Of a stretch of 32,357 nt of DNA, positions 1,018 to 31,124 are shown piece after piece (the first letter of the stretch is position 1; every line of letters begins with the position of its first letter). The position numbers and the translations under genes were made by a program. Origin of the DNA: a virus (lineage: Duplodnaviria; Heunggongvirae; Uroviricota; Caudoviricetes); the IMG/VR virus record IMGVR_UViG_2675903665_000002; one strand, given 5' to 3'. Under the pieces are notes generated by a model. That model ran no database searches, had not been told where the DNA came from, and saw only the letters and a list, made by a program, of their open reading frames with translations.

Positions 1018-1080
1018 TCACCCATAAGGTAACAAAAATCAAGGATAGTTACCCATGAGGTGCATTTACCTGTTGGGTAA
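1018..1080. promoter_or_regulatory. Divergent immunity-region operator cluster: three sites matching TTACC-N5-GGTAA
   Basis: TCACCcataaGGTAA at 1018-1032 (9/10), TTACCcatgaGGTGC at 1049-1063 (8/10), TTACCtgttgGGTAA at 1066-1080 (10/10). Lies between divergent genes 751..981 (-) and 1136..1720 (+). Confidence 0.7.
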
Positions 1081-1135
1081 TATTGCTTTAAATTGAATCA
1101 TCTACTGATTCATATATGAGGCGATTTTCCAGAAA

Positions 1136-1720
1136 ATGAAAAGTATCCAGGACGTCCGCAGGCAAAATCTCAACGACTTGATCGACCGTGAATTCAATGG
1201 TGTTCAGACGCGGATGGCAGAAAAACTTGGAACTCAGGCAAATCTGGTAAACCGCTGGGCTCTTGGCAAGAAGGTTATCGGCGACCAGGTTGCGCGAAAA
1301 ATTGAAGCTGCCGCCAATAAACCACGTAACTGGCTTGATATCGATCGCTCGCTTTCTCAGGAAGGTTTTCAGCCTGTCGGCCCAAGCGACATTGGTCAGC
1401 TGGCGGCTCACAACCTGGAACGCTGGATGAGCGAAAGCCGCGACCTTTCAACTCAGGGAAAACTTCACCGCGCATCCGGCGTCGCCCAGGTGACAATCAG
1501 CCGCCTGTTAAACAATGAGGTCAGTGTTTCCATTTCCACCCTGGAGAATGTTGCATCAGCATTCGGGCGTCACGGCTATGAATTACTGATTCACCCGCAC
1601 GACCCTGCGACCATCAACTATGACCGCTCGCGCTACGCATTGTTACCCGAAACCGAGAAAGCAAAGATCGAAAGTTACATTGAATTTGTCATCAACCAGA
1701 ACGAAAAAAACAAACAATAA
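1136..1720 (+). CDS. Phage repressor-like protein with two tandem XRE-type HTH domains; no LexA-like S24 peptidase domain recognised
   Basis: 194 aa. HTH-like segments near residues 20-60 and 110-150. No obvious SD upstream of the ATG, so possibly leaderless like lambda cI. Followed by an intrinsic terminator. Confidence 0.65.
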   Translation: MKSIQDVRRQNLNDLIDREFNGVQTRMAEKLGTQANLVNRWALGKKVIGDQVARKIEAAANKPRNWLDIDRSLSQEGFQPVGPSDIGQLAAHNLERWMSESRDLSTQGKLHRASGVAQVTISRLLNNEVSVSISTLENVASAFGRHGYELLIHPHDPATINYDRSRYALLPETEKAKIESYIEFVINQNEKNKQ

Positions 1721-1740
1721 AATCATATTTTTCAGTAAGT

Positions 1741-1768
1741 AAGCCGCCTTCTGGCGGCTTTTTTATTG
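1741..1768 (+). terminator. Rho-independent terminator after the repressor-like gene
   Basis: Hairpin AAGCCGCC-ttct-GGCGGCTT followed by a T-run. Confidence 0.75.
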
Positions 1769-1777
1769 CCTATACTA

Positions 1778-1854
1778 TTACCTAATGGGTAATTTTTTTA
1801 ACTCATATCTATTGACATCAAACCAAATACGCATAATTATTACCTCAACGGTAA
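1778..1854 (+). promoter_or_regulatory. Early-left promoter (TTGACA 1812-1817, -10-like TAATTA/AATTAT about 1834-1840) flanked by two perfect operators
   Basis: TTACCtaatgGGTAA at 1778-1792 and TTACCtcaacGGTAA at 1840-1854; the second overlaps the -10/+1 region. Confidence 0.65.
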
Positions 1855-1873
1855 CAGACCGAGGTAACAAGTT

Positions 1874-2026
1874 ATGCAGTGGAAAATCATCAACGGTTGG
1901 TACTGCGTTACTGCATGCGGATTCATGAGCTGGAAGTTCCGCACCTTACAGGAAGGCATTAAGTGGGCTTTCGTCAGCAAAGAAGCTCGCGATGTGGCCA
2001 ACGATAACGAGATATGGGAGGGCTGA
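1874..2026 (+). CDS. Small hypothetical protein (50 aa), first ORF of the early-left operon
   Basis: ATG at 1874 with GAGGT SD 8 nt upstream. Below the size cutoff of the ORF track; found by hand translation. Confidence 0.3.
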   Translation: MQWKIINGWYCVTACGFMSWKFRTLQEGIKWAFVSKEARDVANDNEIWEG

Positions 2027-2028
2027 TA

Positions 2029-4024: not shown

Positions 4025-4073
4025 CCACCACCGCGGCGCCACGTGCGCCGCACTGCAACCAAGAGAGGTATTT

Positions 4074-5619: not shown

Positions 5620-5943
5620 AATCACGCCTGACGAATCGCGATTATCTCGCTATTGGTATTGCAGAGATTGCTGGACTCAGTGGCGCATGATTTGACAATG
5701 CCGCCAGAGCTATCGCATACTGACCGCACTAGAACTTCAAAGCGGTCACCCGCACCCGATAGCTTTGCGGCTTTTTTATGCCTGCAATTTGGCATAGTCA
5801 CATCCGTACAAAGGTCGGGTGGAGAGGCGTAATACAATACCCAAAAGGGGAATATGCCCGGAGCGTCTTTGAAGGCTCTAGTTGACACCCGATCACCAGC
5901 TACTAACTGGTGATTGCTAACTAAAACTTCAAAGGAGGTCATC

Positions 5944-6594
5944 ATGACCAGTCAACTCATCCCCGTATTCAACGGCACTATATCCAACGAAACCGCTCTT
6001 CTCGTTAATGCCCGTGATTTACACACTTTCCTCGATGTGGGTAAGCGATTTGCTTCGTGGATTGTCGAACGAATTGCTGAATATGGTTTCGTTGAAAATC
6101 AAGACTTTATGATTATTTCCCAAGTTCGGGAAAAAATAGGCAGAGGCCGTCCTGCAAAAGACTACCACCTAACCCTCGATACAGCCAAAGAGCTGGCGAT
6201 GGTCGAGCGTAACGAAAAAGGTCGTCAGGTACGACGCTACTTCATTGAATGCGAGAAACGTTTAAGACAACAAGAAACAAAAGTGGAGAAGGTCTTGTCA
6301 GGCTTCATGCCCGCCATTATGGAGGCGATCAAGCTGGAAGACAAAAAAGAATACAGCGCCCCACTGAAGCCCGGCTACCGCAGCCTGATTCACTCGCCGT
6401 CTGGTGTTCTTGGCCTGACGGAGAACTCACTGCTGATGAATCTGCTGAACCAGTTACAGGAAGACGGGCACGACGTATCGGGCGCGGCGGCGGAGCTGAC
6501 CACCATGTTCTGCTACATCGTTGGTGTGAGCAAATGCCTGCGTGATATCCAGACGCACGCGGAGTACATCAACGACAAGGCAGGGTTCTTCTGA
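5944..6594 (+). CDS. Phage antirepressor (Bro-N/AntA-like N-terminal domain)
   Basis: Perfect AGGAGG SD 7 nt upstream of ATG 5944. N-terminal region resembles the AntA/Bro-N antirepressor fold (...ARDLHTFLDVGKRFASWIVERIAEYGFVENQDF...). Confidence 0.7.
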   Translation: MTSQLIPVFNGTISNETALLVNARDLHTFLDVGKRFASWIVERIAEYGFVENQDFMIISQVREKIGRGRPAKDYHLTLDTAKELAMVERNEKGRQVRRYFIECEKRLRQQETKVEKVLSGFMPAIMEAIKLEDKKEYSAPLKPGYRSLIHSPSGVLGLTENSLLMNLLNQLQEDGHDVSGAAAELTTMFCYIVGVSKCLRDIQTHAEYINDKAGFF

Positions 6595-6640
6595 CAGAAC
6601 GGCGGCACAGGGATGTGCCTTTAAATAATTCTGTACAGAT

Positions 6641-6682
6641 TGCAGACTGTGGGTGAATAGCGTACTATTACCTTAAAGGTAA
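6641..6682 (+). promoter_or_regulatory. Promoter-like element with perfect operator upstream of the AT-rich two-gene operon
   Basis: TTGCAG at 6641-6646, 16-nt spacer, TACTAT at 6663-6668, then TTACCttaaaGGTAA at 6668-6682. Confidence 0.55.
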
Positions 6683-6724
6683 ACCTGTTTTTATTTTATA
6701 CCTGTAACTTACCGGAGATTAAAG

Positions 6725-7051
6725 ATGACAAAACTTGGATTCGTGATGAGAGGTCCGGTAAGAAGCGGAACTCATGCAAAGCGTAGCAAGAGTCGTATTT
6801 TTACTGGTAAGGTTGTAGCACGTAAATCAGCTATTGGCTCGTTCAATAGTGAAAATGCGGCATTGCGCCATATTTTTATCAGCACAAAGCCAAGAGCATC
6901 CGCTGATGTGCATACAATGTCTATTCCTATCACAAAGAATATAAAGCGGATAAAAAAGCTCTCATCTGCAGAATCAAAAGAGATATCTTTCCGCCAGCTT
7001 AACTCATTAGAAACGCATATGAAGGAAGAGGAATTCGATGTTTTTGAGTGA
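6725..7051 (+). CDS. Hypothetical small basic protein (108 aa), first gene of an AT-rich accessory pair
   Basis: GGAG SD 8 nt upstream of the ATG. AT-rich relative to flanking phage genes, with several AGA and ATA codons. Stop overlaps the start of the next gene. Confidence 0.6.
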   Translation: MTKLGFVMRGPVRSGTHAKRSKSRIFTGKVVARKSAIGSFNSENAALRHIFISTKPRASADVHTMSIPITKNIKRIKKLSSAESKEISFRQLNSLETHMKEEEFDVFE

Positions 7052-7550
7052 GTATAGCGGGAAGGTTATACCTACTGGTGAGTTTAAAACTGATGACTTT
7101 CTGATTTCGCTAAAAGATGCTTTTAAACAACACTGGCGTCATGGTCATCATCCTGATCTGGGAAAAGATACTCTTTTTGAAAGACCAGAGGAAGTATTAG
7201 GCTTCCATCTCAGAAAGGTTCATGTCAATATTGGTGAATATGCATCATATTCATACTCATGTACTGAACAGTGTTGGGATGAGTGGTCATATGGATTGAT
7301 TGATGAACAAGGAAATTACAGGCCAAAACCAACCAGTAACGCATATCTCATATATGCAGTCAATGAAATAAGAGATGCAGCCTTACTAGCTTATTGGGAC
7401 CCGCCCGCACACACCAAAGCTAACGCAAAAGTTTGGATGGATTCCGTATTGAATTTCACAAAATTATTTCATGAACGAACGAATACAGCTCCACTTAGTA
7501 GAAATGTTTATCCGTGGGATTATTCGTACAAATCCAAAAAGCCTGCATAG
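7038..7550 (+). CDS. Hypothetical protein (170 aa), second gene of the AT-rich accessory pair
   Basis: ATG 7038 with GAGG SD; overlaps the upstream gene by 14 nt. No family recognised. Confidence 0.6.
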   Translation: MFLSEYSGKVIPTGEFKTDDFLISLKDAFKQHWRHGHHPDLGKDTLFERPEEVLGFHLRKVHVNIGEYASYSYSCTEQCWDEWSYGLIDEQGNYRPKPTSNAYLIYAVNEIRDAALLAYWDPPAHTKANAKVWMDSVLNFTKLFHERTNTAPLSRNVYPWDYSYKSKKPA

Positions 7551-7631
7551 TAGTTTTTTATGGACGAAACAAAAGTCAGTGCTACACTCATTGACGCCAC
7601 ATTGAGGTGGTTTATAGATGGAAATTTCACA

Positions 7632-7793
7632 ATGAAAAAAGCATTTGCTGCACTGTTCGTTTTGTTGTCTCTGGTAGCTTCAACTCAGGCCTTTGCCGGT
7701 CGTTGTCAGCACGACAGCGACACTGCTGCTGACGGCTCCCGCTGCGGTGGGCGTTCTGCGGATTCCCGCCCGGGTGGCGGTGGCATTCGTTAA
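7632..7793 (+). CDS. Small secreted Gly-rich protein (53 aa) with N-terminal signal peptide
   Basis: MKKAFAALFVLLSLVASTQAFA signal-like N-terminus. ORF-track start at 7560 is probably too far upstream. Weak RBS. Confidence 0.4.
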   Translation: MKKAFAALFVLLSLVASTQAFAGRCQHDSDTAADGSRCGGRSADSRPGGGGIR

Positions 7794-7815
7794 AAACAAG
7801 GCCGCGAAAGCGGCC
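7791..7815 (-). terminator. Intrinsic terminator closing the long - strand structural operon
   Basis: GGCCGC-GAAA-GCGGCC hairpin; on the - strand it is followed by TTGTTTTTA. Confidence 0.65.
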
Positions 7816-7816
7816 T

Positions 7817-7832
7817 GTGACATGTCACACTA
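7817..7832. repeat. 16-mer GTGACATGTCACACTA, copy 1 (palindromic core TGTGACATGTCACA)
   Basis: Identical 16-mer recurs at 27852-27867. Both copies sit at a gene stop next to a - strand terminator, at the two boundaries of the structural operon. Confidence 0.6.
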
Positions 7833-8390
7833 CATTGATATATGATTCATAAAGTAGCTTAAAGATTTACTTCCCAGAAAAGAAATTTCTTTTCCTGGAT
7901 ATGTCGCAATAATTGAGCATGACTTATCCCCGTTAGAGGTAACAAATCCTGAATAACCTACTTGTTCTTTACCATTTTGTTGCTTGGCTAAAAAGTAGAG
8001 GTAGCTTATCTTTTTGCCCTCTGGGTAAAACTCTGCCAAACCAGTATCGGTGATTGAATATTTTATTCTCCCGCCTTGAGTAACGTTTTCCATCTCAAGT
8101 TTAGCTATGTCTTTTCTGTTGTATTCAGCATTGATTTTCCTTTCGAAATCAATGTTGTTTTCAAATGAGTAGGAAGCAACAGTCTGAATAGATGGGAACA
8201 CGTTTATCTGGATGCCTCCACAGTCGGCACAGGTATAAAGGTATGAATCAGATGGAATCCCCATAAAAGAAAACTGAGTTACCTTAAATTTATCGCTATC
8301 TCCAAAGTATTGAAGTTCGCATTTAACATTTTGCCCTGCAAAAGAAAATGCAGACATCAATATTGAAACAAAAAATATAATTGCCTTCAT
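7830..8390 (-). CDS. Secreted or lipoprotein-like accessory protein (186 aa), AT-rich
   Basis: N-terminal signal peptide MKAIIFFVSILMSAFSFAGQ. Last gene of the - strand operon. Composition differs from the neighbouring structural genes. Confidence 0.6.
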   Translation of the reverse strand: MKAIIFFVSILMSAFSFAGQNVKCELQYFGDSDKFKVTQFSFMGIPSDSYLYTCADCGGIQINVFPSIQTVASYSFENNIDFERKINAEYNRKDIAKLEMENVTQGGRIKYSITDTGLAEFYPEGKKISYLYFLAKQQNGKEQVGYSGFVTSNGDKSCSIIATYPGKEISFLGSKSLSYFMNHISM

Positions 8391-8392
8391 TA

Positions 8393-10945
8393 TTATTTAC
8401 CTAGCATGAACTGCGATGGTGGGATCAGAAAGTCGTTACCCTGCTCACGCTCAACACGGCGCTGATAACGCTCAAGAGAGCCTGGGTCAAGGGCATCTTG
8501 TATCCGGTTCAATATTAAACCATTCATCGCCGTACGAAGCCAGAACACGTTGAGGAATGGCGTATTGTCAAGTGCCGTGCGATACCAGTCACCCAAATCT
8601 GCATCCCCTCTCGTGGTCTGCTGGAGCAGCGTGATAATGCTGTCAGCGTTCGATGCTGCTGGCCCCATTAGCGACGTAACCGGCCCGGCCCCCATGCGGT
8701 TGACCTCGCCAAACATGAAGTCACCCAAGATGCCAAGACCGCCCCCCTGAGATGCGGCTGCGAGAAACGTCTTGGCATCTGCCGGGCGTGGTGTTTGCCC
8801 TTTCAGCATGAGTTTTGACTGCATGGAGATATAACCAAACATAGTCGCCCAGACAAAGAGGTTTGCAGCACCAAGGAAAGCCCCCTTCCCGTTACGTAGC
8901 AGCGCATTCGTCAGCGATCCGGTTTTCGACTCACCAAGCCCAGCAGGAATATAACCACGCCCGAATACTTCGCGTCCTAGTACGTTCTGCATGAAGCTTG
9001 CAGTGAACGATTTGTACTGACCAGCGAATCGTATTGCTTCCCCAGCCACCGTTCCTGGCACCGTGCCCATCTTCATAAACGCCTGCGTGCGATCGCCAGG
9101 CTCTGACATGGCGATATTCAGGCGGTCAAGGATGTAGCCGCGCAACTGCCCTTCCAATTGATCGCGTGCGTCAGCGATAGCGCGCTGCGTTGGTTTGATC
9201 CCCTTACTCTCTACATAACCGGCAATCACTTCGTCAGGCACGCCGCGGATGCCGCTGGTCGTCATGAACTTACGACCTTCGCTATCGGCCATGTCCATGT
9301 TGCGAAAAATTTCCCACTCACGTTCGCCAATACCGTGCAGATCCAGCACGCGTCGCAGGTCTTCCGGTAGCCGCGCATGAGACTGGTCAGCATTCTTTGC
9401 AAGCCAGTTGGTTATCATCATGGCGTTGCTGTTGCGACCGCTCTCGGTCCAGAAGTTCATGAGGTTGTACTTAAAGAAAAGCTGCTGCGCGCGACCAAGC
9501 TTTCCATTCAGCGTGTCATCACCAGATATGCGCCGGATGATTTCCTGCGTCATGGAGTCGGAATAAACTCCGATAGAGGAAAGGATCTCTTTCTGCTCCG
9601 CGCTGTTGTAACGCGTGAAGCGGCCTCTCATAGCACCAAGCAACGCCTGCATAAAATTCTGCCCTTGGTAGCGCATCTCGGTAGCGGCGATAGGCACGTC
9701 GTTAAACGATGAGATTACCGCGCCACCAAGTTGGCTCATACGCAACCAGCCGCGTACAGCCGCCGACGCATTGGCCCAGCCTACGCTGCCAGGAATATTT
9801 AGCGAGCCGTCAACCTGCGGCATTACGGTACGGTTAATGCGACGCACCTTCGTCATGTAGTCAGCCAACGCTGCCGGTCTTCCGGATTTGCTGATATCTT
9901 CAGCAATGGCGTCCGTCAGGTACTTAAACATGTTCTGTGGGTTAGTGCCCAGTACGCGCATCATGCCCGTTGTGCGGGCAGCGCTGTTTAAGCCACCAAA
10001 CAGCGCTTCTCGCAGGCTGCCGGTGCCGAATTGCTGGTTGTACTCGTGCCACGAGATACCATCTTTGAAGTGCAAAATTCGCTCTTGGCTGGCGCGTTTA
10101 GCTGCGTTCGCCGATCCCTTAAAGCCATTCATCCAATCGGGCTTTTCAGATGTAAGATGCACGCCGGAAGCCAGCCCGTTATAAATGTTACGCGTGAACT
10201 GCTCGCGGTCAGCCACGCCGTCAAAAGTGCGCTCATCAAGGCGCGGGAGAATAGCATTTCGCCATGCTTCATAACCTGCGGCGCGGATCTTCATGATGTC
10301 GTGTGACTGGCGCACTATATAGCCCGGCTCTTTGCGTATCCATGCCCCGGCGCGGTTCTCATCAATGCGCGCAGTTTCCTGCCATTTCATGATGATTTGT
10401 GCAGCGCTTACGGATTGCTTTGTCATACCGTCAGTTGACTGCCCGCGCCCTATGCGCCACATTGCATCGGCAATTTCCCGGTCATTGCTGCCGCTGGCGA
10501 TGAATTGCACCAGCCCGGCACGGTCAAAATCGTAGTTGATACCGGAATGATACTTGCCGCGCAGTTGCGCCACCTCCGAAGATACCGACCGGCGGGCGCC
10601 GGTACGCGCATCGTTGCGGCCAACCAGCATTGCTTCAAGCCCGATATCCGGGCGGTCTTTCCAGATAGTACGAAGCTCTCTAAGTCGTTGTGCGGCAATA
10701 CGGGCGTTGATTGCCTTATTGCGAGCCTCAATCTGTTTTGCCAGCATATCGGCATTGCTCAGTTCTTCCGCTGCGCGCATCGCGGCCTCTTCCAGAGACA
10801 GCGCCTCATTGGTCGCCAGAATTCGCCTAGTGGTGTCGTTCATGTCACGCACCAGCGACTCCATCTCATCGGAAGAAAGCTCGCGACCAGCGGCAGCATT
10901 TACACTGCGCTCGCACTGCGTCAAAAATTCGTTTGCTGCCATCAC
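8393..10945 (-). CDS. Large internal virion / DNA-ejection protein (850 aa)
   Basis: Position at the end of the internal-core protein block. Start overlaps the upstream stop (ATGA). Confidence 0.55.
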   Translation of the reverse strand: MMAANEFLTQCERSVNAAAGRELSSDEMESLVRDMNDTTRRILATNEALSLEEAAMRAAEELSNADMLAKQIEARNKAINARIAAQRLRELRTIWKDRPDIGLEAMLVGRNDARTGARRSVSSEVAQLRGKYHSGINYDFDRAGLVQFIASGSNDREIADAMWRIGRGQSTDGMTKQSVSAAQIIMKWQETARIDENRAGAWIRKEPGYIVRQSHDIMKIRAAGYEAWRNAILPRLDERTFDGVADREQFTRNIYNGLASGVHLTSEKPDWMNGFKGSANAAKRASQERILHFKDGISWHEYNQQFGTGSLREALFGGLNSAARTTGMMRVLGTNPQNMFKYLTDAIAEDISKSGRPAALADYMTKVRRINRTVMPQVDGSLNIPGSVGWANASAAVRGWLRMSQLGGAVISSFNDVPIAATEMRYQGQNFMQALLGAMRGRFTRYNSAEQKEILSSIGVYSDSMTQEIIRRISGDDTLNGKLGRAQQLFFKYNLMNFWTESGRNSNAMMITNWLAKNADQSHARLPEDLRRVLDLHGIGEREWEIFRNMDMADSEGRKFMTTSGIRGVPDEVIAGYVESKGIKPTQRAIADARDQLEGQLRGYILDRLNIAMSEPGDRTQAFMKMGTVPGTVAGEAIRFAGQYKSFTASFMQNVLGREVFGRGYIPAGLGESKTGSLTNALLRNGKGAFLGAANLFVWATMFGYISMQSKLMLKGQTPRPADAKTFLAAASQGGGLGILGDFMFGEVNRMGAGPVTSLMGPAASNADSIITLLQQTTRGDADLGDWYRTALDNTPFLNVFWLRTAMNGLILNRIQDALDPGSLERYQRRVEREQGNDFLIPPSQFMLGK

Positions 10946-12639
10946 ATCCCCCGGTTAATCATACAGGCGGCAAATGCCCGGAAAGCGTTGCTCATGCTAT
11001 TGTCGCTGGCGTCGGCACGAATATCATTGAGTTTCTGGCGCAACGTGGTCGCAAGATCAGGGTTATCGACAGCGATATCGTCAAGCAGGGCGTTACTCAG
11101 GTTGAGCTCGTTATCAAGGTCTGCAGCGGCAGCGGTAATTTCATGATCTGCCTTTTGCGTTTCTTGATAAACCCGATCGGCTGTTTCGCTTGCTGGGCGA
11201 GCCGTTTCATCAACCTGCCGTGCCGGGTTCTGTATGCGATGGATGGCGCGTTCACGCAGTGCCGGTTTGTGCAGTTCATAGAAGGGCTCAACATCTGGGC
11301 TACGTCCTTCCATCATGTGTGCCAGCGCAGCGCGATACGCCTGCTGGTTCACGTTCCAGTCAGCATCCCTGATGGCGCTTGCGGCAGTGCGAACTGCGCC
11401 AGCGACCGGCGACATCTGCATGCCGTCCAGGATCTGCTGCGCACGCTCGGAAATGGTGACTTTCAGGTCGTCTGGGATCTCACCGCGGGAAATCTGAGAC
11501 TGGCGCCAGCGCGCCTGCTCTGCTGTCGCGTTCTGCTCCAGCGATGTGTTGATCTCCTGATTGCGTGCAGCGATGGCGTCTTTCTCGGCCTGAATCTCTT
11601 TCAGTGCCCTAGAGCGCGCATCCTTAAACTTCATCCGCTGCCCCTGATACTTTTTGGTGCGCTGCTGCAGCGTCGCATCAAGCGAGTCAGCATGACGTTG
11701 ATTAGCCGCAAGCTCGGCACGCAGGTCGGCAACGTTACCGATCTGACCGCTCTGTAATTCCTGCTGGCGCGCCATATAGTCAGGAACCACGTCGTCATAA
11801 GCCCGGCTGTATGCGTAGCTCTCCGCTTCACTGGAAATGGCCGCCGCCAGATCTGCGTTAGCGCCAACCTCAGGGATATTCACGCCCGCCGGAATGTTGT
11901 CAGGCGTTATCACCGGGGTTGGCTGCGCATCGCCAGAAAACGCCGGGGACTCTCCCGTTGCAGCATCGGGAACGCGACGCGGTCGCACGATATCGGCGAT
12001 AAGGCCGCCGCCGGCATGCATTAGACCGCCAGCCATCGTGTTAAAGAAAGTACTTTCCAACGCGTTGCTATAGGTGAAGTCGTCACCTTCCGCCGCCGCT
12101 GCCAGCCCGGTAAGCGGCACGGTCACCACCGCCTGCGCTGCCCCCATGCGTGCACCAGCAACAAATCGCTCGCCAAATCGGCCAAGCACAGAAGCCGCCT
12201 TTGCTTCTCCAGCGAACGGAACCAGCGCCAGCGCCACGTTACCAGGATCTGCCATTGAACCAGCTAGGCTGGCTGCGAAATTAAGCGGCGTGGCTACCCA
12301 TCCGCTCGGTGCCGACATCGCGATCTGCTGGCGTGCCAGAGAATCTTTGCGTTCGGCAATAACATGATCGAGAAAAGCCTGCGTAACGCCAGAATCTGGC
12401 ACGTTTATGCTCTTTACGCCGTACTGCTTCAGGAGCTCATCCGCTTCCTGCTTACTGATAACTGTAGAGTTTGGGTCATTCGCCAGCGAGTCGGCCTGCG
12501 CAAAGCGGTAGCCGGACATGACCGGCCCCTCTTCAAATCCCTGCTTAAGGGAAGAAAGCAGCGATTCGCCAAGCCCTGCTGGCGCGTTGCCAATTGGCTG
12601 GTTAATTCCCTGTCCCGGATCATCTGTGTAAATTGGCAT
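10942..12639 (-). CDS. Internal virion protein (565 aa), Ala-rich with coiled-coil-like regions
   Basis: Synteny within the core-protein block; low-complexity Ala-rich composition. Confidence 0.5.
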   Translation of the reverse strand: MPIYTDDPGQGINQPIGNAPAGLGESLLSSLKQGFEEGPVMSGYRFAQADSLANDPNSTVISKQEADELLKQYGVKSINVPDSGVTQAFLDHVIAERKDSLARQQIAMSAPSGWVATPLNFAASLAGSMADPGNVALALVPFAGEAKAASVLGRFGERFVAGARMGAAQAVVTVPLTGLAAAAEGDDFTYSNALESTFFNTMAGGLMHAGGGLIADIVRPRRVPDAATGESPAFSGDAQPTPVITPDNIPAGVNIPEVGANADLAAAISSEAESYAYSRAYDDVVPDYMARQQELQSGQIGNVADLRAELAANQRHADSLDATLQQRTKKYQGQRMKFKDARSRALKEIQAEKDAIAARNQEINTSLEQNATAEQARWRQSQISRGEIPDDLKVTISERAQQILDGMQMSPVAGAVRTAASAIRDADWNVNQQAYRAALAHMMEGRSPDVEPFYELHKPALRERAIHRIQNPARQVDETARPASETADRVYQETQKADHEITAAAADLDNELNLSNALLDDIAVDNPDLATTLRQKLNDIRADASDNSMSNAFRAFAACMINRGM

Positions 12640-12640
12640 G

Positions 12641-15262
12641 TTATCGTCCTGATTGCTGGCCGTTCTGGAAAATGTTAATCAGGTTGTCGCGCTGACTTTC
12701 TGCGCTGTATTCCTTAGACTGTCCGGGAGTATATTTCACCGGAGTATCAATGAACTTGGTAATGCTGTTCCATACTGATCGGTTGGTTGTTCCCAGTTTC
12801 GCCAGATCGTTGAACGGCACCGTAATCGGGTTGCCGTCGGCACCGTTGACGATCAGCCCGTTGAGCATCAGGGTAAGTCCTGTTTCGTCGCTGTTGGTAA
12901 CCCACTGCGCATTATCACGAATGCGGGAGATACTCTGCTCACGGTTGACCTCATCAGGTAGCCTTGGGTCACCAATAAGCGGCATAATCTGATCTGCTGA
13001 CAGGTTTTTCAGATACGCATTGGCACCATCGTTAACGTCACGAATATCTATCCCTGCACGATTAGGTAGCCGCCAAGTGCCATTGGTCTGGTACTGCTCG
13101 CCGAGGATGTCCTGATACGCCTGTTTTGCTGCATCAGACGCCGACATTCCGCGCTGCATGTTGATGTAAGTAAGTCGTTTTCCCTGCTCGTTGAAGTTAT
13201 TCCACACGGCAGTGCCACCAGGCTGAACAACCATCGTGCCAGCAAAATCTTTCGATTGGTCATTCCATGACGAGTCGGCGCTATCCGCGTCGGTTTTCTC
13301 AAGACTGCCGCGTAAGTCAGCAGTTTTAACGCTACGGTTTTGCCAGAGCGCATTTGCCGCGCGCGGGTTCTCGGTAGCCATGACAACCTGCAACGCAGGA
13401 TAAGCGCTCTTCTGAACCTGCTGCATCACCTGATCCGAGTATTTGCCGAACGACTGCGCCACCGACTGAATGGCCTTAACGCTAGATTCCTGCGTGTTGT
13501 CAATACGCTGCAGTACATCATTGACCATGGACTCCGGTAAAACTTTTTTGCTCATTATCCCCAGGCGGTCTTTTTCAGACTGTATGCGGGAAACTAGGTA
13601 TTCACCAGATGAAGGGTCATTCAGGTACTGCTGGAATGCAGCCTGCACAACCGGAGAGTTTTGTTGCAGCCATGCCCCCGGATCCGCTTCCCGCGCCTTC
13701 AGTACCTGCCCAAGCTTGACCTTTGCCGATGCATAAAGCTCTGCTTTGTATTTAAAGTCAGGGTCGTTTTCCTGCGGTGCCATTGCCTGCACGGCGGCGG
13801 TACCCTGCTGGACGTTGCCCTGCATAATGGTCTGATAAACAGGTTGTAGCGTCATTGCCTGCTGGTATTGCTGGAAGGTTTTTTCCATCTGCAGGCGCTC
13901 GGCAGGCGCTGCCTGAAGCGGCATAACGGCGGCCCATTCGTGCGCTGAAATAGGCGTCACCTGCTTACCGGCCTCAATTTTGGATAGGTCGTCCTGCATT
14001 CGACTCTGTAGCGCAACGCGACCGGCTGAAGCCTGCATGTCGTACATGCCAGCAACCTTGCTCATCATCTGCGACTTTTTGTCCGGACTCATGGCGTTCC
14101 AGAATGGCTGTGCGATGAGGTTTTCCATCGTCGCAGATCCAGGAATAGCTCCAGCACTGCCAGTTACTTTTGCCACATAATTGCGCGTCTCGTCGTATGG
14201 GATAGCTGCGGCAAACTGGGCGTTACTGACTTCGCCTGTGCGCGGATCGCCAATCTGTTTAATCCAGCCGTCAACCTTTCCTGGGCCAGCGTTATAGGCA
14301 GCTACTGCCAGAACCGGGTTATTGTCGTATTTCTTCATCTGCGCGCCGAAATAAGCTTGCCCCAAGCGGGCATTATAGCGCGGGTCATTCAACCATTTAT
14401 CGCGGTCCCACGGCACGCCAGCAAGGCGGGCAGCTTCGGGGCCAGTATCTTCCGTCACCTGCGCTACGCCAACAGCGCCTTTTGGCGACACCAGAGGTGT
14501 TCCGTCCTTTCCGTACTGATTTCCGCCACTCTCCTGCCAGATTATTGCAGAGAATAACTGCGCCTCACTCGGTGTATCGGTTACCTCAATCTTGCCGTTC
14601 GGACCCATCATCTGTTGATACATCGGCACATACCACGCCTCCGCCGCACCGTTCGCGGCATTCTCGCGCCACGAAACCCAGTTCTGTTCGATCTCTTCCT
14701 GACTCTGGCCGTGGGCTTCGCCGTAAGCGATGATGCTATGATATGCCTTCAATCCTGCCTGGTTTGCCATTGTCGGGTTACGGAACTGCATCGATAGGTT
14801 TTTTAGTGTCGCATCCTGCATATCCGCCTCATACTGGCGAACCTGTCCTATTTCGTACCTCCCGGCCTGCGTAGTGAACTGAATGCGCTGCTGCTGCGCC
14901 TGCTGCATGAAAGCATTACGAGCCTGTTCATCCGGCAGCGACATAGCCAGTTGTTCGACCTGAGCATCAAACTGCTGCGTATACTCCTGACCTTTTCCAA
15001 TAGCATTTTTCCCTTTCAGGTTAAGCAATCCTGTTTCAGGATTATTCAGCAGATCACTGCTTATCTGACTGAGGTTAAGAGATGCCTCCTGAGCCAGAGC
15101 GATATTGGCACGCTGTTTTGCCTGACCAAAAACATCAATTGCCTCTGTCCCTGCCCGAACAAAAGCATCACCAATACCTGGCTGAGAAAACGTCTGCAAG
15201 CCTGCTGACTGAACTCCACGGCTCTGAACCTGACGGCCGGATACTGTTGGTACGACTGGCAT
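12641..15262 (-). CDS. Internal virion protein with lytic transglycosylase (SLT) domain
   Basis: Motif SAIIWQESGGNQ...AYNAGPGKV typical of soluble lytic transglycosylases. Start adjusted to ATG at 15262 (GGAGG SD, MPVVPTV...) rather than the ORF-track start at 15337. Confidence 0.7.
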   Translation of the reverse strand: MPVVPTVSGRQVQSRGVQSAGLQTFSQPGIGDAFVRAGTEAIDVFGQAKQRANIALAQEASLNLSQISSDLLNNPETGLLNLKGKNAIGKGQEYTQQFDAQVEQLAMSLPDEQARNAFMQQAQQQRIQFTTQAGRYEIGQVRQYEADMQDATLKNLSMQFRNPTMANQAGLKAYHSIIAYGEAHGQSQEEIEQNWVSWRENAANGAAEAWYVPMYQQMMGPNGKIEVTDTPSEAQLFSAIIWQESGGNQYGKDGTPLVSPKGAVGVAQVTEDTGPEAARLAGVPWDRDKWLNDPRYNARLGQAYFGAQMKKYDNNPVLAVAAYNAGPGKVDGWIKQIGDPRTGEVSNAQFAAAIPYDETRNYVAKVTGSAGAIPGSATMENLIAQPFWNAMSPDKKSQMMSKVAGMYDMQASAGRVALQSRMQDDLSKIEAGKQVTPISAHEWAAVMPLQAAPAERLQMEKTFQQYQQAMTLQPVYQTIMQGNVQQGTAAVQAMAPQENDPDFKYKAELYASAKVKLGQVLKAREADPGAWLQQNSPVVQAAFQQYLNDPSSGEYLVSRIQSEKDRLGIMSKKVLPESMVNDVLQRIDNTQESSVKAIQSVAQSFGKYSDQVMQQVQKSAYPALQVVMATENPRAANALWQNRSVKTADLRGSLEKTDADSADSSWNDQSKDFAGTMVVQPGGTAVWNNFNEQGKRLTYINMQRGMSASDAAKQAYQDILGEQYQTNGTWRLPNRAGIDIRDVNDGANAYLKNLSADQIMPLIGDPRLPDEVNREQSISRIRDNAQWVTNSDETGLTLMLNGLIVNGADGNPITVPFNDLAKLGTTNRSVWNSITKFIDTPVKYTPGQSKEYSAESQRDNLINIFQNGQQSGR

Positions 15263-19749: not shown

Positions 19750-20187
19750 TTAACCAGTTACTTTTGAGCGGATCGGATACGGCGTATTGGCATCAACATC
19801 AAGATTGATACCCGCAGTGAATTTGCCGGCCGTTAGTGGGCCAGTTGCGACGGAGTAGTTAACACGCAGATATCGCTGAACACCGGCAGGCACCTTTGCA
19901 GAAACAACTCGTTTACCTGCTGTCAGGGTAGCCTTTGCCAGTGCGCCACTATCATAAATAGTGGACCATGAGCTGTTATTCTCACTCGTCTGCAACTGGA
20001 TGTTTACAGTTGCCTCACCACTTGCCGTGGCGGCTTCGTTAACCAGCACCCAAAACTCAAGCGGATAACCCACGCCGATATCGCGACGGTTTCCATCAAT
20101 TGGACCGAGATCGATTACGTCAGTAGAAGCCGCGGTATTCGTAACCGCCTGAGCTTCGGAGAACATCAACAGTTTGTCGGTGATCAT
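19750..20187 (-). CDS. Hypothetical head-associated protein (145 aa), possible decoration or minor capsid protein
   Basis: GGAG SD upstream; immediately downstream of the major capsid gene. Confidence 0.45.
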   Translation of the reverse strand: MITDKLLMFSEAQAVTNTAASTDVIDLGPIDGNRRDIGVGYPLEFWVLVNEAATASGEATVNIQLQTSENNSSWSTIYDSGALAKATLTAGKRVVSAKVPAGVQRYLRVNYSVATGPLTAGKFTAGINLDVDANTPYPIRSKVTG

Positions 20188-23924: not shown

Positions 23925-24131
23925 TTACTGACCAAGCAGCGTTTTACCGCTGGTATTAGCGGTTGATGTGTCGCCCTGAGAACCGGTAAGCAGCGTAGAA
24001 CTACGACCAGCAGCAGCGCGACGGCGACGTGTTTCTTCGTCGCGGGCATCAACAACGGCGGCATCCTGCTCCTGTGGTGCTGCCTGAACTTCTGGTGTTG
24101 CAGGCACTGATGGTGAGCTACCCATGCACAT
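23925..24131 (-). CDS. Small hypothetical protein (68 aa) upstream of the portal gene
   Basis: ATG at 24131 with GGAG SD 8 nt upstream. The alternative overlapping frame 23912..24151 looks less protein-like. Confidence 0.35.
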   Translation of the reverse strand: MCMGSSPSVPATPEVQAAPQEQDAAVVDARDEETRRRRAAAGRSSTLLTGSQGDTSTANTSGKTLLGQ

Positions 24132-24199
24132 ATCAATGACTCCGTACGCAATTAAATTATTACCAATTTAACCACATATGATTTATTTATCGTAGAAGG

Positions 24200-24236
24200 T
24201 TGACATTTAACGCGTGAATTATTACCTTTCGGGTAA
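24200..24236 (+). promoter_or_regulatory. Promoter (TTGACA at 24200-24205) with perfect operator for the tRNA transcription unit
   Basis: TTACCtttcgGGTAA at 24222-24236 positioned where a -10 element would be expected. Confidence 0.55.
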
Positions 24237-24558: not shown

Positions 24559-24635
24559 GTGGCATTAGCTCAGTTGGACAGAGCAACCGCCTTCTAAGCG
24601 GTTGGTCGCAGGTTCGAATCCTGCATGCCACGCCA
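24559..24635 (+). tRNA. argU: tRNA-Arg (anticodon UCU), argU-like
   Basis: 77 nt. 7-bp acceptor stem GTGGCAT/ATGCCAC, D-arm GCTCAGTTGGACAGAGC, anticodon arm ACCGC-CTTCTAA-GCGGT (anticodon TCT), T-arm GCAGG-TTCGAAT-CCTGC, discriminator G plus CCA. Near-identical in arrangement to E. coli argU. Confidence 0.95.
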
Positions 24636-24822: not shown

Positions 24823-24838
24823 GCTTGATGACCGCAAA

Positions 24839-24857
24839 TTACCTTAAAGGTATAATC
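24839..24857 (+). promoter_or_regulatory. Near-consensus operator (TTACCttaaaGGTAT, 9/10) fused to TATAAT, directly upstream of the membrane-protein gene
   Basis: Same TTAAA spacer as the 6668 site. TATAAT at 24851-24856. Confidence 0.5.
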
Positions 24858-25676
24858 ATGAAAAACTTCAAGGTAATTAGCATGTTTGAATCGTTTAAAG
24901 AGCTGTTTTTATCTACTGCCAATACTGCCGTGAATCGAGCCAAAAACCCTGTGCTTGGTGCTTTTGTTATGTCCTGGTGCGCCTTCAACTGGAAATCAAT
25001 TCTTTATCTATTTTTTAGCAAATCAAACATAATAGATAAAATTTCATATATCTCAGATAACAGCACATGGAAAACTGTTATGTTTTATCCATGCTTATCT
25101 GTAATTGCTATCTGCTGCCTATTACCATGGGTAAACAATATCATTAACGTATGGCAAGCAAAGCCTCTTGATAATAATGACTCAATCGAAAATCACCTGA
25201 AGGCAAGAAAAATCCAGCGTGAAACCAGACTGCAGAGGTTATTGGCTAAAAAAGATGTTACATACGACAAAGTTAAGACTGGCGCGGAAAAAGACATCCA
25301 AGAGATGAAAGAAGAGATTATTCGATCAAAGAATAGTATGGGGGAATTGACTGCTGAGTTGAAAGCTAAAGATGACGAATTGAGATCCGCCAGTGCTCAG
25401 TTAGCAGCTCTAAATCATTCATTAAAAGAGATATCGGAAACTCTTGGAAGAATGAATGAGGCATATAAGACCCTCCAAAATGATTTCGACGAATACAAAC
25501 TCAAATACCCTGAAAAATCTCAAATAAAAAGTCTTGCACTTGGCAACGGCCAAACAATTAGCAACTTTTTGGAGCAACACAACTTATCCGGATTAAAATC
25601 TGGTAAGCCAGACGTTTTTAATAACTTTGGTGTTCTATCTGGATTATCAGGTTTCGAGGATAAAAATAAAGACTAA
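24858..25676 (+). CDS. Accessory membrane protein: two predicted TM helices followed by a long coiled-coil; AT-rich
   Basis: Hydrophobic segments VLGAFVMSWCAFNWKSILYLFF and VMFYPCLSVIAICCLLPWV, then a charged heptad-like region. Opposite strand to the structural genes. Start may be ATG 24882 if TATAAT is the -10. Confidence 0.6.
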   Translation: MKNFKVISMFESFKELFLSTANTAVNRAKNPVLGAFVMSWCAFNWKSILYLFFSKSNIIDKISYISDNSTWKTVMFYPCLSVIAICCLLPWVNNIINVWQAKPLDNNDSIENHLKARKIQRETRLQRLLAKKDVTYDKVKTGAEKDIQEMKEEIIRSKNSMGELTAELKAKDDELRSASAQLAALNHSLKEISETLGRMNEAYKTLQNDFDEYKLKYPEKSQIKSLALGNGQTISNFLEQHNLSGLKSGKPDVFNNFGVLSGLSGFEDKNKD

Positions 25677-27148: not shown

Positions 27149-27741
27149 TGATTACCATCCTGACGTTCTTTGAGTCGCTTCCTGGCTGCTGCTATGCGAT
27201 CAGCAATTGTCACATTCACATTAACATCCAGACGTTCTTTGAATGCGTTGACATCAACATGCTTACCAATCAGCTCAAGGTTCTTCACCTTGTCAGGCCA
27301 TTTAATTTTTTTGAGGATTGTCTCTATTGAATCCTCGTTCATGTTCATGATGGTCGATGACAGATCAAAGCCACTAAGCGTAGTGCGCCAGATTTTCGGC
27401 CACTCACGGATTGGTTTAAGGCTCCCATCGTCGTTGAGGATGTCGATCACGTCCATCTGGTCGATCTCCACCAGGCGCATGAGAACGTAATCAGCACTGA
27501 CACGCATTCGTTTGTTGCGCTCCTCCATCAACTCGGCAATCCGTTTCTGAATGCGTTCATCGCGCATCATGACACTGGCTTTAACTGCCGCTGTATTTGG
27601 GGAGAATCCTGCGTTAATCGCAGCCTGAGTCTGGTTTTCAGGCGTTTTGATGTATGACTGGCAATAAGCCTCCTGCATTGCTGTGAGCGGCTTAAATTGC
27701 GTTGATTTGCGTTTATAGGTTTTAGGTTCAGCAGGCATCAT
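27145..27741 (-). CDS. Terminase small subunit
   Basis: N-terminal LTAMQEAYCQSYIKTPENQTQAAINAGFSPNTAAVKA... resembles the Terminase_2-type small subunit. Start set at ATG 27741 (MMPAEP..., GGTGG SD) rather than the TTG at 27819. Confidence 0.75.
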   Translation of the reverse strand: MMPAEPKTYKRKSTQFKPLTAMQEAYCQSYIKTPENQTQAAINAGFSPNTAAVKASVMMRDERIQKRIAELMEERNKRMRVSADYVLMRLVEIDQMDVIDILNDDGSLKPIREWPKIWRTTLSGFDLSSTIMNMNEDSIETILKKIKWPDKVKNLELIGKHVDVNAFKERLDVNVNVTIADRIAAARKRLKERQDGNQ

Positions 27742-27758
27742 AACCACCGTGGTAATTG

Positions 27759-27781
27759 TTACCGTTGTGGTAATAATACCA
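27759..27781 (-). promoter_or_regulatory. Candidate late promoter: extended -10 (TGgTATTAT on the - strand) overlapped by a perfect operator
   Basis: TTACCgttgtGGTAA at 27759-27773. The - strand reads catgGTATTATTACC, so the operator covers the predicted start site 18 nt upstream of terS. Confidence 0.5.
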
Positions 27782-28201: not shown

Positions 28202-28225
28202 TATTCACCTTTATTGCGAACATAC

Positions 28226-28447: not shown

Positions 28448-28477
28448 ATCTTTTCACCTTTAAGGATAAGTTGCATG

Positions 28478-29398
28478 TTAGCCACGGTTAACCTCCTGCG
28501 GCGGTTCTGGTAGCGGCATCCAGTGGGTTACTCCATGCCATATACCAGTTAAGATTTCAAACCTTGGCTCTCTGCCTTTCTGTGTCTTGGCATATTCATT
28601 TCTTGTATATACGCATTGTCTAACTGCATATCCATTCCATCCAATAACTGTTTGTCTGATTTCAGGCATTCGCTCACTACAGCTTATCCAACCATCCGGA
28701 GTTACCGGAACTTGCGGAATGGCTGTCTGCTCTCGAACGTCATTAGGCGCTATCGGTTCTGCTGCCAACTGACTGGCATATTTGTTAATGGTAACGATAA
28801 GCTCTTGCTCAGCCTCATCCAGACAATCACCGATACCTCGCCTGTCACCGTCAAAATCATCGAAATCGGCACGAATCCTGGCAACCTTCAGGATTGCGGA
28901 CAACACCTCACTAGGAATTGCCGGATAGTTGGTTGACGTTTCCGAGATTTCCCGAAAATTATTGGTTGACGAATTCTTGTTTTCCCGAAAGTTTCCGGAC
29001 TGAAGCATGGCGGCGCGGCAGGCGTTCCATATTTCGGCAGCAATATCGCGCTCGCTATCGGTTAATTTGTACGTTGAAACATAGCCAGAGAGCATTTCTA
29101 CGTTTTCCGGAGTTGCTTCTTCAGGCACTACCGGTGCTGGAGGGGCGGCGTAAATGCCCTCTATCACTAAATGTTTGCGCTCAAAATCATCTGGCTCTCG
29201 ATGATATACGTAACTCCAATCACCAAGGTTATCATTGCGCCTGCAACGGAAACCTATCGGCTCTGCTTCCAGCGATGCCAGCGCAATCCGTGCCAGTTCT
29301 TCCGCTTCTTCTGCTGGCAGTACAACGTTGCTACCAGGTCCGTATGTTTCGCGCCACTGCTTGATTGTCAGTAGTCGCTCTTTGGTTATAGTGGTCAT
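28478..29398 (-). CDS. Phage protein with C-terminal DUF551-like domain
   Basis: C-terminal ...ILTGIWHGVTHWMPLPEPP resembles the DUF551 proteins common in enterobacterial prophages. Confidence 0.55.
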   Translation of the reverse strand: MTTITKERLLTIKQWRETYGPGSNVVLPAEEAEELARIALASLEAEPIGFRCRRNDNLGDWSYVYHREPDDFERKHLVIEGIYAAPPAPVVPEEATPENVEMLSGYVSTYKLTDSERDIAAEIWNACRAAMLQSGNFRENKNSSTNNFREISETSTNYPAIPSEVLSAILKVARIRADFDDFDGDRRGIGDCLDEAEQELIVTINKYASQLAAEPIAPNDVREQTAIPQVPVTPDGWISCSERMPEIRQTVIGWNGYAVRQCVYTRNEYAKTQKGREPRFEILTGIWHGVTHWMPLPEPPQEVNRG

Positions 29399-29408
29399 TT
29401 GTTATGCC

Positions 29409-29606
29409 TCAATACACGAAATCTGTTTTAAATTCATGGTTACATTCTGGACAGCATGTTTCGTAACCTTTTATTTCTTCACATGCCTGTTTAGCTCCAG
29501 AAAACTCCCAGAAATCAGCATCACAAAGCAGATCGAAATTGTGACCGCATTTTGGGCATTCGGTATCAAGTGACAGATTCCAGTAAGCAGTGGTGTTTTT
29601 ATCCAT
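29409..29606 (-). CDS. Small zinc-ribbon protein (65 aa)
   Basis: CPKCG...CCPECNH four-Cys arrangement. Confidence 0.45.
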   Translation of the reverse strand: MDKNTTAYWNLSLDTECPKCGHNFDLLCDADFWEFSGAKQACEEIKGYETCCPECNHEFKTDFVY

Positions 29607-29607
29607 A

Positions 29608-30210
29608 TCACTCTCCTTTGATGCGAATGTCAGCGACGCGTAATGCGTGTTCTAGGTCAATCAGGTAAAGCCAACTGCCATTTTCTTTAGGTATCATGAC
29701 TTGTCGCTCATCTGCATTTATCGGGTGTCCATATCGAAGGTCGTAGCGAGTCGGTAATTGAACTTCCCGCGCTTCCAGTTCAGCAATACGCTTGCACCCA
29801 TCAGAGATAACTCCCTCGTAATACTCGCGCTGCTCGTTGAGTTTTGATTTTGCTGCTTCAAGCTCAACGCGCAGCTTCCCTACCGTTAACGCAATATCCT
29901 CGTTCTCCTTGTCGCGGGATTTGATGTATTGCTGGTTTCTTTCCCGTTCATCCAGCAGTGCCAGCACGGTAGCTGGATTGGCTGCGGCGATGAATTCAGC
30001 ATTGGCCTGCTGCTCCATTTGGAAATCTTCATAGAAACGGCTTTCTGGATGCGCTCCTTCAATTCTGCAAATGGGAATATATCCAGCAACTTCACGATGA
30101 ATTAGTGCATCATCACCATCAAATCGGCCATCTCCATATTCGAGCGACCACTCGCCACACGTTGCTTTCTCTGCCGCCTCACGCAGTGCCTGATAGTCAA
30201 TCTTGCTCAC
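29608..30210 (-). CDS. Ead/Ea22-like early protein
   Basis: Segment AEFIAAANPATVLALLDERE is characteristic of the Ea22-like family of lambdoid prophages. Confidence 0.6.
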   Translation of the reverse strand: MSKIDYQALREAAEKATCGEWSLEYGDGRFDGDDALIHREVAGYIPICRIEGAHPESRFYEDFQMEQQANAEFIAAANPATVLALLDERERNQQYIKSRDKENEDIALTVGKLRVELEAAKSKLNEQREYYEGVISDGCKRIAELEAREVQLPTRYDLRYGHPINADERQVMIPKENGSWLYLIDLEHALRVADIRIKGE

Positions 30211-30638
30211 TGGATGACTCCTTTACGAAGCTGTTCAGCAATACTTACGCATATCTCTGCGCCTCTAATCAGCCCCGGAACGTTCTTGTTTGGCCCAACT
30301 TCACCATCAACAAAATCAATCATCGCGTTACGAGCCATATCCACGCCCTGCGCCCGCACTTCAGCCAGGAAAGCGTCGGTGGCTGGGGTTTCCGTGAAGT
30401 TGTCCTCCCAACCGTAGTACTCCTGACGACAGAAGTTATTAAATTCCTTCTCCGACTGTTTAAGCCCCGCATTCTCCGCCGCCAGCGCATTAGCACGCAC
30501 CAGTTGCACTTCCAGTTGCGTTGCCAAATCGCTGATCAGCTTTGCCACACTGCGCATATCAACGGCACCACATTCTGCTTTCAGTTCCGAAGCCATCTCA
30601 TGCCCGGCGGCAACTAACCCTTTGATATTACTTTCCAT
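30207..30638 (-). CDS. Hypothetical protein (143 aa)
   Basis: ORF with start/stop coupling to its neighbours. Confidence 0.45.
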   Translation of the reverse strand: MESNIKGLVAAGHEMASELKAECGAVDMRSVAKLISDLATQLEVQLVRANALAAENAGLKQSEKEFNNFCRQEYYGWEDNFTETPATDAFLAEVRAQGVDMARNAMIDFVDGEVGPNKNVPGLIRGAEICVSIAEQLRKGVIQ

Positions 30639-30699
30639 CTTTACCCTCGCTTATCCACATAACTTATTGATTACACTGATAACTAAAAAGATCGTCGAT

Positions 30700-31044
30700 T
30701 CAGAACTCTTCGATGTTCCAGCCACCACCTGCTTTCTTTGGTTTAACCGTTACCCCGATGATTCGGAACGGATACTGATCTGCGGCGACTTTGGTTTTCA
30801 CCCTGGCGTCGTCGGTCCAGAAACCTTTCACTTCGTGCAGTTCCATCTCGCCGGTGGCGAGCATCACAGCAAAATCGGGCGTATAGAACGTGTTGTCAGC
30901 TAACCGCAGCTTGATACCCTCAAATCGATACCAGACGATTTCTCCTGCACGTTTACGCAGCTCAAGGTGCTGGCAATACGCAGATTCTGTTTTGTTCATC
31001 TGTCCTGTTTTGAGTCGACCAAGAGCCTGTATCTGTTTTCTCAT
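30700..31044 (-). CDS. Putative PD-(D/E)XK-type nuclease (114 aa), NinG/RusA-like position
   Basis: D...E-x-K arrangement (TPDFAV...ELHEVKG). Start codon lies 4 nt from an operator that embeds the SD. Confidence 0.4.
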   Translation of the reverse strand: MRKQIQALGRLKTGQMNKTESAYCQHLELRKRAGEIVWYRFEGIKLRLADNTFYTPDFAVMLATGEMELHEVKGFWTDDARVKTKVAADQYPFRIIGVTVKPKKAGGGWNIEEF

Positions 31045-31047
31045 GAT

Positions 31048-31124
31048 TTACCCCTGAGGTAATTAAAAACCACATAAGACACGAAATCAATAGATTTTAG
31101 AATATTTTATTACCTAACGGGTAA
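31048..31124. promoter_or_regulatory. Two perfect operators between the P-like gene and the downstream nuclease-like gene
   Basis: TTACCcctgaGGTAA at 31048-31062 and TTACCtaacgGGTAA at 31110-31124. Confidence 0.65.

Follow-up and report, generated by a model that had tools for sequence, protein, structure and literature searches.

A palindromic operator repeated at promoters throughout an epsilon15/phiV10-like prophage genome, probably recognized by the phage repressor Rep

Which protein reads the palindrome TTACC-N5-GGTAA that recurs between the genes of the virus IMGVR_UViG_2675903665_000002, and do its copies act as one set of operators? An earlier note on this DNA had proposed a genome-wide regulon under the control of a single DNA-binding dimer. 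We analysed the whole stretch of 32,357 nt, referred to as the window in the following. The repetition of the palindrome is real and lies far above chance. Comparison with related genomes indicates that the sites very probably serve as operators for Rep (1136..1720), the prophage repressor of a podophage of the epsilon15/phiV10 type. The regulon is a correct rediscovery of a known one: the operator set is already marked in the record of Salmonella phage epsilon15, and the repressor belongs to a family with solved structures (PDB 5D50 and 5D4Z).

An exact scan of the whole window detected eight perfect sites, at 1066, 1778, 1840, 6668, 24222, 27759, 31048 and 31110, which reproduces all positions given in the earlier note. 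The number expected by chance is 32357/4^10 = 0.03, the same value as had been quoted there. Comparison with unrelated DNA had been named beforehand as the test that could refute the enrichment. We observed no perfect site in 100 dinucleotide-preserving shuffles of the window, and control scans of phage lambda (48.5 kb) and of a 50-kb segment of E. coli K-12 also returned none. If up to one mismatch is allowed, the window contains 13 sites compared to 0.41 expected; if up to two are allowed, it contains 35 compared to 8.3. The variants listed previously at 1018, 1049 and 24839 are real and carry one, two and one mismatch, respectively. Two further intergenic one-mismatch sites, at 681 and 27741, had been overlooked, and a one-mismatch match inside a gene at 8014 is probably due to chance. 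The claim that the sites are intergenic also held: the curated gene list spans 90% of the window, and all eight perfect sites as well as four of the five one-mismatch sites fall into the non-coding remainder of ~10%.

The symmetrised logo of 65 perfect sites from seven genomes reads a-TTACC-nnWnn-GGTAA-t. At the central position 126 of the 130 counts were A or T; the A/T that flanks the core was seen in 67%. The operators are two-fold symmetric and 17 bp long, and the centres of their half-sites lie 10 bp apart. This corresponds to one helical turn and thus fits a pair of helix-turn-helix (HTH) domains on one face of the DNA.

Sequence comparison identifies the window as a Uetakevirus, i.e. 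an epsilon15/phiV10-like temperate podophage. Over most of its length it shows 97-98% nucleotide identity to the Escherichia phages HEMP4, vB_EcoP_ZX5 (ZX5), TL-2011b and phiV10, and in the structural genes ~76% to epsilon15. The same motif was found at orthologous positions in epsilon15, SPC32H, phiV10, ZX5, HEMP4, Tyrion and a Serratia prophage. SPC32H, ZX5, Tyrion, phiV10 and HEMP4 each have 8-11 perfect sites in the same places. The GenBank record of epsilon15 (AY150271.2) contains seven features labelled protein_bind, repressor and lysogeny, and all seven coincide with a perfect TTACC-N5-GGTAA. They precede the small terminase gene, gp3 and the tailspike gene and follow the repressor gene and the replication genes. 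Apart from the tailspike feature they correspond to sites 27759 (feature 12-27), 24222 (2931-2947), 31110 (35906-35922) and 1778/1840 of the window, whereas the rep/cro intergenic sites and the second site of the nin pair are left unmarked in the record. The two phages share an identical 15-mer core, orthologous positions and spacings of 62, 18 and ~48 bp. The window differs in being an E. coli-clade relative with a Rep of 43% identity and in having extra operators on accessory cassettes (6668 and 24839). Since it lacks the tailspike region and the lysis cassette, the sites located there are missing as well.

The conservation extends well beyond these genomes. We searched IMG/VR for two sites 62 bp apart, and at least 120 stretches matched this pattern. 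Together they contain 626 perfect sites in 1.25 Mb compared to 1.2 expected. Among the matches listed, all 55 distinct loci with both 62-bp pairs had one or more additional perfect sites in the rep/cro region, which lies between the pairs and outside the search pattern. In the same 55 of 55 loci Rep and the Cro-like protein encoded next to it each co-occur with the motif. The Serratia prophage, with a Rep of 54% identity, has the same operator layout, and relatives with a 41-54% identical Rep carry the same motif. In none of the Rep-bearing loci examined, with Rep identities as low as 41%, had the half-site changed. We found no relative of Rep with a different operator; the search for related loci gave only 100% identical Reps and the protein search reached 52%.

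Rep itself shares 100% identity with the repressors of ZX5 (ORF21) and phiV10 (phiV10p40) and 43% with those of epsilon15 and SPC32H, and it matches SPC32H Rep over the full length (PDB 5D50, E 4e-42). In the Pfam search only HTH families matched Rep, with HTH_3 at residues 106-147, and no peptidase S24 (autocleavage) domain was found. According to papers citing the work on SPC32H, its Rep binds palindromic sites as a tetramer, and the pairs of DNA-binding domains form across different dimers. In PMC9986798 dimerisation is assigned to the middle domain and tetramerisation to the C-terminal domain, which is also where the antirepressor Ant binds and disables Rep. The same paper states that the repression mechanism of SPC32H-type Rep "has not been extensively characterized". 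The idea of one DNA-binding dimer acting on scattered operators was essentially right, with a correction on the binder. A single phage regulator of many units is supported by the comparative data and by the epsilon15 annotation, whereas the homolog is described in these sources as a tetramer. By analogy the binder is probably a tetramer rather than a dimer.

The sites also keep a fixed relation to promoter elements (Table 1). At four promoters, namely early-left (1840), nin (31062), accessory (6668) and terminase (27773), the -10 and the operator overlap by a single T, which ends the -10 and begins the operator. In all seven genomes the two sites of a pair lie 62 bp apart, both at early-left (1778/1840) and at nin (31048/31110), and the rep/cro operators span 47-48 bp. 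Within the 62-bp pairs the 47-bp spacer contains a conserved promoter, with a -35 of TTGACA or TTGATT, then 17 bp and a -10 of AATTAT or TTTAAT. This architecture was retained in 56 distinct early-left and 70 distinct nin sequences among the matches listed. At the terminase gene the 18-bp spacing was present in six of seven genomes; in SPC32H the second site has two mismatches. The extended -10 (TGnTACTAT/TATTAT) together with the operator is conserved there in six genomes. The earlier statement that every site overlaps a -10 or start region needs to be restricted: 1778 and 31110 both lie upstream of their -35. Several units start directly after a terminator. The genome can thus be read as a string of insulated, operator-gated units.

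Table 1. Operators, regulatory genes and annotated counterparts in epsilon15. Positions refer to the window except in the last row.
Feature	Position	Strand	Match to TTACC-N5-GGTAA	Context
One-mismatch site	681..695		TTACCTTTGAGGTAC, 1 mismatch	after cro terminator (729->710), ahead of replication genes
Cro-like HTH protein, 76 aa	751..981	-		divergent from rep; candidate second binder of the same operators
Right operator (OR) site nearest cro	1018..1032		TCACCCATAAGGTAA, 1 mismatch	within spacer/-35 of cro promoter
OR middle site	1049..1063		TTACCCATGAGGTGC, 2 mismatches	
OR site nearest rep	1066..1080		perfect	overlaps genus-invariant TAATAT (1078-1083)
Rep, prophage repressor, 194 aa	1136..1720	+		N-terminal HTH DNA-binding, middle HTH-fold dimerisation and C-terminal tetramerisation/Ant-binding domains (roles as given in PMC9986798)
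Early-left distal operator	1778..1792		perfect	after rep terminator (1741-1760), 20 bp upstream of -35
Early-left proximal operator	1840..1854		perfect	first T = last T of -10
Probable antirepressor	5944..6594	+		AntA/AntB N-terminal domain fused to C-terminal SPC32H Ant-related domain
Accessory operon operator	6668..6682		perfect	promoter TTGCAG 6640-6645, 17 bp, TACTAT 6663-6668
Head-operon operator	24222..24236		perfect	90 nt upstream of head operon (gp3 homolog 23925..24131, minus strand)
Accessory-gene operator	24839..24853		1 mismatch	fills spacer and start of -10, ATGACC-17-TATAAT (24828-24856)
One-mismatch site	27741..27755		1 mismatch	18 bp from 27759; covers ribosome-binding region of small terminase gene (start codon 27738, minus strand)
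Terminase (late) operator	27759..27773		perfect	minus-strand order: terminator 27810->27793, extended -10 TGgTATTAT (27781->27773), operator
nin proximal operator	31048..31062		perfect	minus strand: TTGATT (31090->31085), 17 bp, TTTAAT (31067->31062), then operator
nin distal operator	31110..31124		perfect	after terminator ending replication genes; 62 bp from 31048
epsilon15 repressor-binding features	12-27, 2931-2947, 19895-19911, 32479-32494, 32554-32570, 32616-32632, 35906-35922			coordinates of AY150271.2

In the rep/cro intergenic region three sites lie over two divergent promoters. The cro promoter reads TTGTTA-17-TATTAT (1035->1007, minus strand) or uses an alternative, genus-invariant TTGATT at 1042->1037. 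The TAATAT at 1078-1083, which faces rep, may be the -10 of the rep promoter. Site 1018 keeps its one-mismatch TCACC half-site in every genome, in opposite halves in the E. coli and Salmonella clades, and the position of site 1049 is occupied by a perfect site in epsilon15 and SPC32H. The early-left promoter consists of TTGACA (1812-1817), a gap of 17 bp and AATTAT (1835-1840). At the nin promoter the start codon of 30700..31044 follows the proximal operator after 3 nt. The one-mismatch site at 681 is the same in ZX5, Tyrion, phiV10 and HEMP4. The leader of the cro-like gene further contains a palindrome, CTGATATTTATTTCAG, at 991-1006. Its likeness to a LexA box is limited to the CTG...CAG ends. 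The members of the E. coli/Enterobacter clade share this palindrome, whereas epsilon15 and SPC32H do not have it conserved.

Site 24222 had previously been assigned to the tRNA unit, which is half the story at best. On the other strand the operator does face tRNA-Arg (24559..24635). However, the site is fixed upstream of the head operon, at a constant distance of 90 nt from gp3 in all genomes compared, including epsilon15, in which no tRNA is annotated at the orthologous locus. In six genomes with an identity of 75-80% elsewhere, this distance and the sequence of the 90-nt leader (24132-24221) hardly vary. The leader contains TGTCAA and TTGGTAATAATTTAATTG. The invariant TGTCAA could serve as the -35 of a tRNA-facing promoter, and a divergent role of 24222 is possible. 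For the one-mismatch site at 27741 the conserved GGTGG could equally well be a Shine-Dalgarno sequence. The operator at 6668 serves a two-gene accessory operon (6725..7550) with the products phrog_5933 and phrog_1651. The phrog_1651 protein has a weak Pfam match to the YafO toxin (E 7e-4, below the cut-off), and the two genes may form a toxin-like accessory pair. Behind site 24839 lies an inserted accessory gene with a probable start at 24882 and its end at 25676. phrog_4780 aligns from residue 9 of the open reading frame starting at 24858, and the protein has one hydrophobic segment.

These results suggest the following model. The genome would be divided into short transcription units, each typically consisting of a terminator followed by a sigma-70-type promoter with one or two 17-bp operators. 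In the lysogen, Rep would silence all lytic units together, i.e. cro and replication, early-left recombination, nin, terminase, head and the two accessory cassettes. As the -10 and the operator share a T, bound Rep would mask the end of the -10 and the transcription start. At early-left and nin a second operator lies exactly 62 bp away, and both promoter hexamers are thus enclosed between two sites. If the switch works as in SPC32H, induction would be brought about by an antirepressor (candidate 5944..6594) that takes apart the Rep tetramer, and not by RecA-dependent cleavage. A bolder version of this model is possible, though we regard it as doubtful. One Rep tetramer may clamp the operators 62 bp apart and so trap the early-left or nin promoter. 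Its specificity may be frozen because the same operator has to persist at at least eight unlinked promoters. The epsilon15-like phages of Escherichia, Salmonella, Enterobacter and Serratia would then form one immunity group despite a Rep identity of 41%, and accessory genes would join the regulon via an operator-bearing promoter.

Several observations weigh against Rep as the common regulator. From the motif with its statistics, positions and conservation, and from the homology of the proteins, we infer Rep as the binder, repression by occlusion, cooperative or tetrameric binding of the paired sites and Ant-driven induction. The epsilon15 features may themselves be computational predictions. 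The operator flanks are AT-rich and -10-like, so promoter calls are weaker where no -35 exists; this makes the shared register weaker evidence at the -35-less sites 1778, 31110 and 24222. Moreover, we found no convincing promoter overlapping 24222 in the direction of the head genes. Finally, since the motif is invariant and co-occurrence is complete, covariation singles out neither Rep nor the Cro-like protein and cannot separate the two as binders.

The Cro-like protein is a rival candidate. It could be the main binder and act as a lytic repressor or general regulator, with Rep binding a subset of the sites or other sequences. It matches phrog_35 'transcriptional repressor' (E 5.6e-13), contains an HTH-like invariant stretch (AGTTSHYIQTHLT) and is better conserved across the genus than Rep (76-100% compared to 43-100% identity); its co-occurrence with the motif is as complete as that of Rep. 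However, the epsilon15 record attributes the sites to the repressor, and a Cro-type shut-off of late, head and accessory promoters would be counter-productive in lytic growth. We therefore consider it quite unlikely that this protein is the main binder. In lambda-type switches Cro and CI use the same operators. Sharing of the OR sites between the Cro-like protein and Rep would accordingly be compatible with Rep as the regulator and does not compete with it.

A conserved transcription factor of the Enterobacterales hosts, which would couple the phage promoters to a host signal, could account for an identical motif in phages of Escherichia, Salmonella, Enterobacter and Serratia. Against such a factor, three sites occupy the rep/cro intergenic region, where immunity operators are classically located, and both the E. 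coli K-12 segment and lambda lack perfect sites. We know of no host regulator with a similar site, as the earlier note had also remarked. The known sites are CTGT-N8-ACAG for LexA and TGTGA-N6-TCACA for CRP. NarL 7-2-7 and CRP/FNR-type sites were rejected because their spacing or half-site is wrong. For LexA the window contains no match to the consensus within three mismatches and only four loose CTG-N10-CAG, one of them at 991 in the cro leader. Binding by a host factor is hence very unlikely. The palindromes might also not be protein operators at all but RNA hairpins, terminator parts, sequences at recombination or module boundaries, or methylase targets. This is suggested by the sites that come directly after a terminator, by two homology breaks relative to the related phages at or beside sites (6683, and 24822 compared to site 24839) and by an MT-A70 adenine methylase that is encoded by the phage. 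Yet an A/U-rich hairpin with 5 bp in the stem and 5 nt in the loop is too weak for a terminator, and real G+C-rich terminators are present upstream of the sites. Invariant half-sites around a free loop are characteristic of recognition by a protein, their constant register relative to the -10 and -35 hexamers points to transcription control, and a methylase target would not be limited to the non-coding part of the genome. We regard these explanations as highly improbable, and Rep remains the preferred binder.

A regulon of this kind under Rep can be compared to several known systems. The window resembles lambda CI/Cro in the tripartite operator between divergent repressor and cro-like genes, in the second cluster at the early-left promoter and in the 17-bp symmetric sites. 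Lambda differs in its half-site and spacing (CACC-N3-GGTG compared to TTACC-N5-GGTAA). In the window six or more additional loci with operators control the late, head, nin and accessory units, so that operators are found at eight or more loci and not just at OL/OR (the left and right operators). No S24 domain was found in its repressor, and antitermination logic of the Q or N type is not evident. With P1 C1 and gp71 of mycobacteriophage L5 the window shares the principle of one repressor with genome-wide sites that silences many units directly. The operators of C1 and gp71 are asymmetric, and L5 stoperators act in transcribed regions and in one orientation. In the window the sites are symmetric, intergenic and located at promoters, and Rep matches only HTH_3-type families and SPC32H Rep. 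The likeness to the scattered operators of plasmid prophages that had been suggested is thus restricted to function. Multiple operators are also described for mycobacteriophage repressors (PMC1934351).

The closest parallel apart from epsilon15 is the Rep/Ant switch of SPC32H, with a full-length Rep homolog, the motif in the same places, an Ant-like domain and no S24 domain in the Pfam search. The window differs from it in that the Ant-like domain is fused behind an AntA/AntB domain and in that the promoter has no canonical LexA box. For the gene at 5944..6594 we obtained a Pfam match to AntA (E 8.8e-28), and tblastn of SPC32H Ant (86 aa) against the window gave 40% identity over 75 aa at 6343-6567 (E 4e-14). 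The ant gene of SPC32H is reportedly LexA-controlled, a finding from work by Kim and Ryu in 2013. No LexA box of the CTGT-N8-ACAG type was found within 300 bp upstream of 5944, and the interval 5813-5914 contains neither a Rep operator nor a LexA box. A perfect inverted repeat, ATCACCAG-N7-CTGGTGAT, is present upstream of the antirepressor gene at ~5892-5914 and overlaps a TTGACA promoter at 5883. The Rfam family sRNA-Xcc1 (RF02221) matches 5813-5902 on the + strand with 62.9 bits, directly upstream of the same gene. Apart from tRNA it was the only match in the Rfam scan of the window.

For three features we found no description in the available records and papers: the 62-bp promoter bracket, the register of -10 and operator, and a half-site that stays the same even where Rep identity has fallen to 41%. 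In the literature covered, nothing useful on the motif or on operators of epsilon15 came up in full-text searches. Four promoters are predicted in the ZX5 paper, which defines no operator. The understanding of this kind of system is unchanged by our results. The operators are unmarked in the records of phiV10, ZX5, TL-2011b and Tyrion and can be transferred directly from epsilon15. They flag where almost all transcription units begin in this common E. coli/Salmonella prophage group, and the 62-bp bracket together with the fixed register offers a concrete and cheap hypothesis for the action of the tetramer.

Some observations concern the window as a whole. A 26-bp direct repeat occurs at 1-26 and 32332-32357, and the junction is contiguous in HEMP4, which indicates a circular contig of ~32.3 kb; the genomes of relatives have 39-40 kb. 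An integrase, a tailspike, a holin, an endolysin and a gp23-like membrane protein were all missing in tblastn searches of the window. Either this element arose by deletion, or it is defective, or its assembly is wrong. The region ~6620-14843 has no nucleotide similarity to HEMP4 or ZX5, and 8393-12639 encodes putative internal-virion proteins unlike those of the relatives. One of 850 aa shows only 24% identity to phiV10 gp20, and for one of 565 aa no similarity to phiV10 gp19 was detectable.

The motif or close variants of it were also encountered in two other settings. In relatives a one-mismatch site, TTACCYTAAAGGTAT, lies upstream of the integrase gene (L003 8026-8040; L002 26882-26896; L004 26960-26974), inside a longer inverted repeat GACGGTAT...ATACCGTC near attP. 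We left this site out of the operator count, since it is embedded in the larger repeat and Rep may not use it as an operator. In the integrase-proximal region of the epsilon15 record, sites for integrase and RNase III are annotated. In addition, three low-GC, Firmicute-like viral contigs, in which no homolog of Rep or of the Cro-like protein was detected, contain 4-5 copies of TTACC-N5-GGTAA clustered in their immunity regions (L013 3793-4142; L079 323-675; L128 6316-6663). In all three contigs XRE-type repressors adjoin these clusters.

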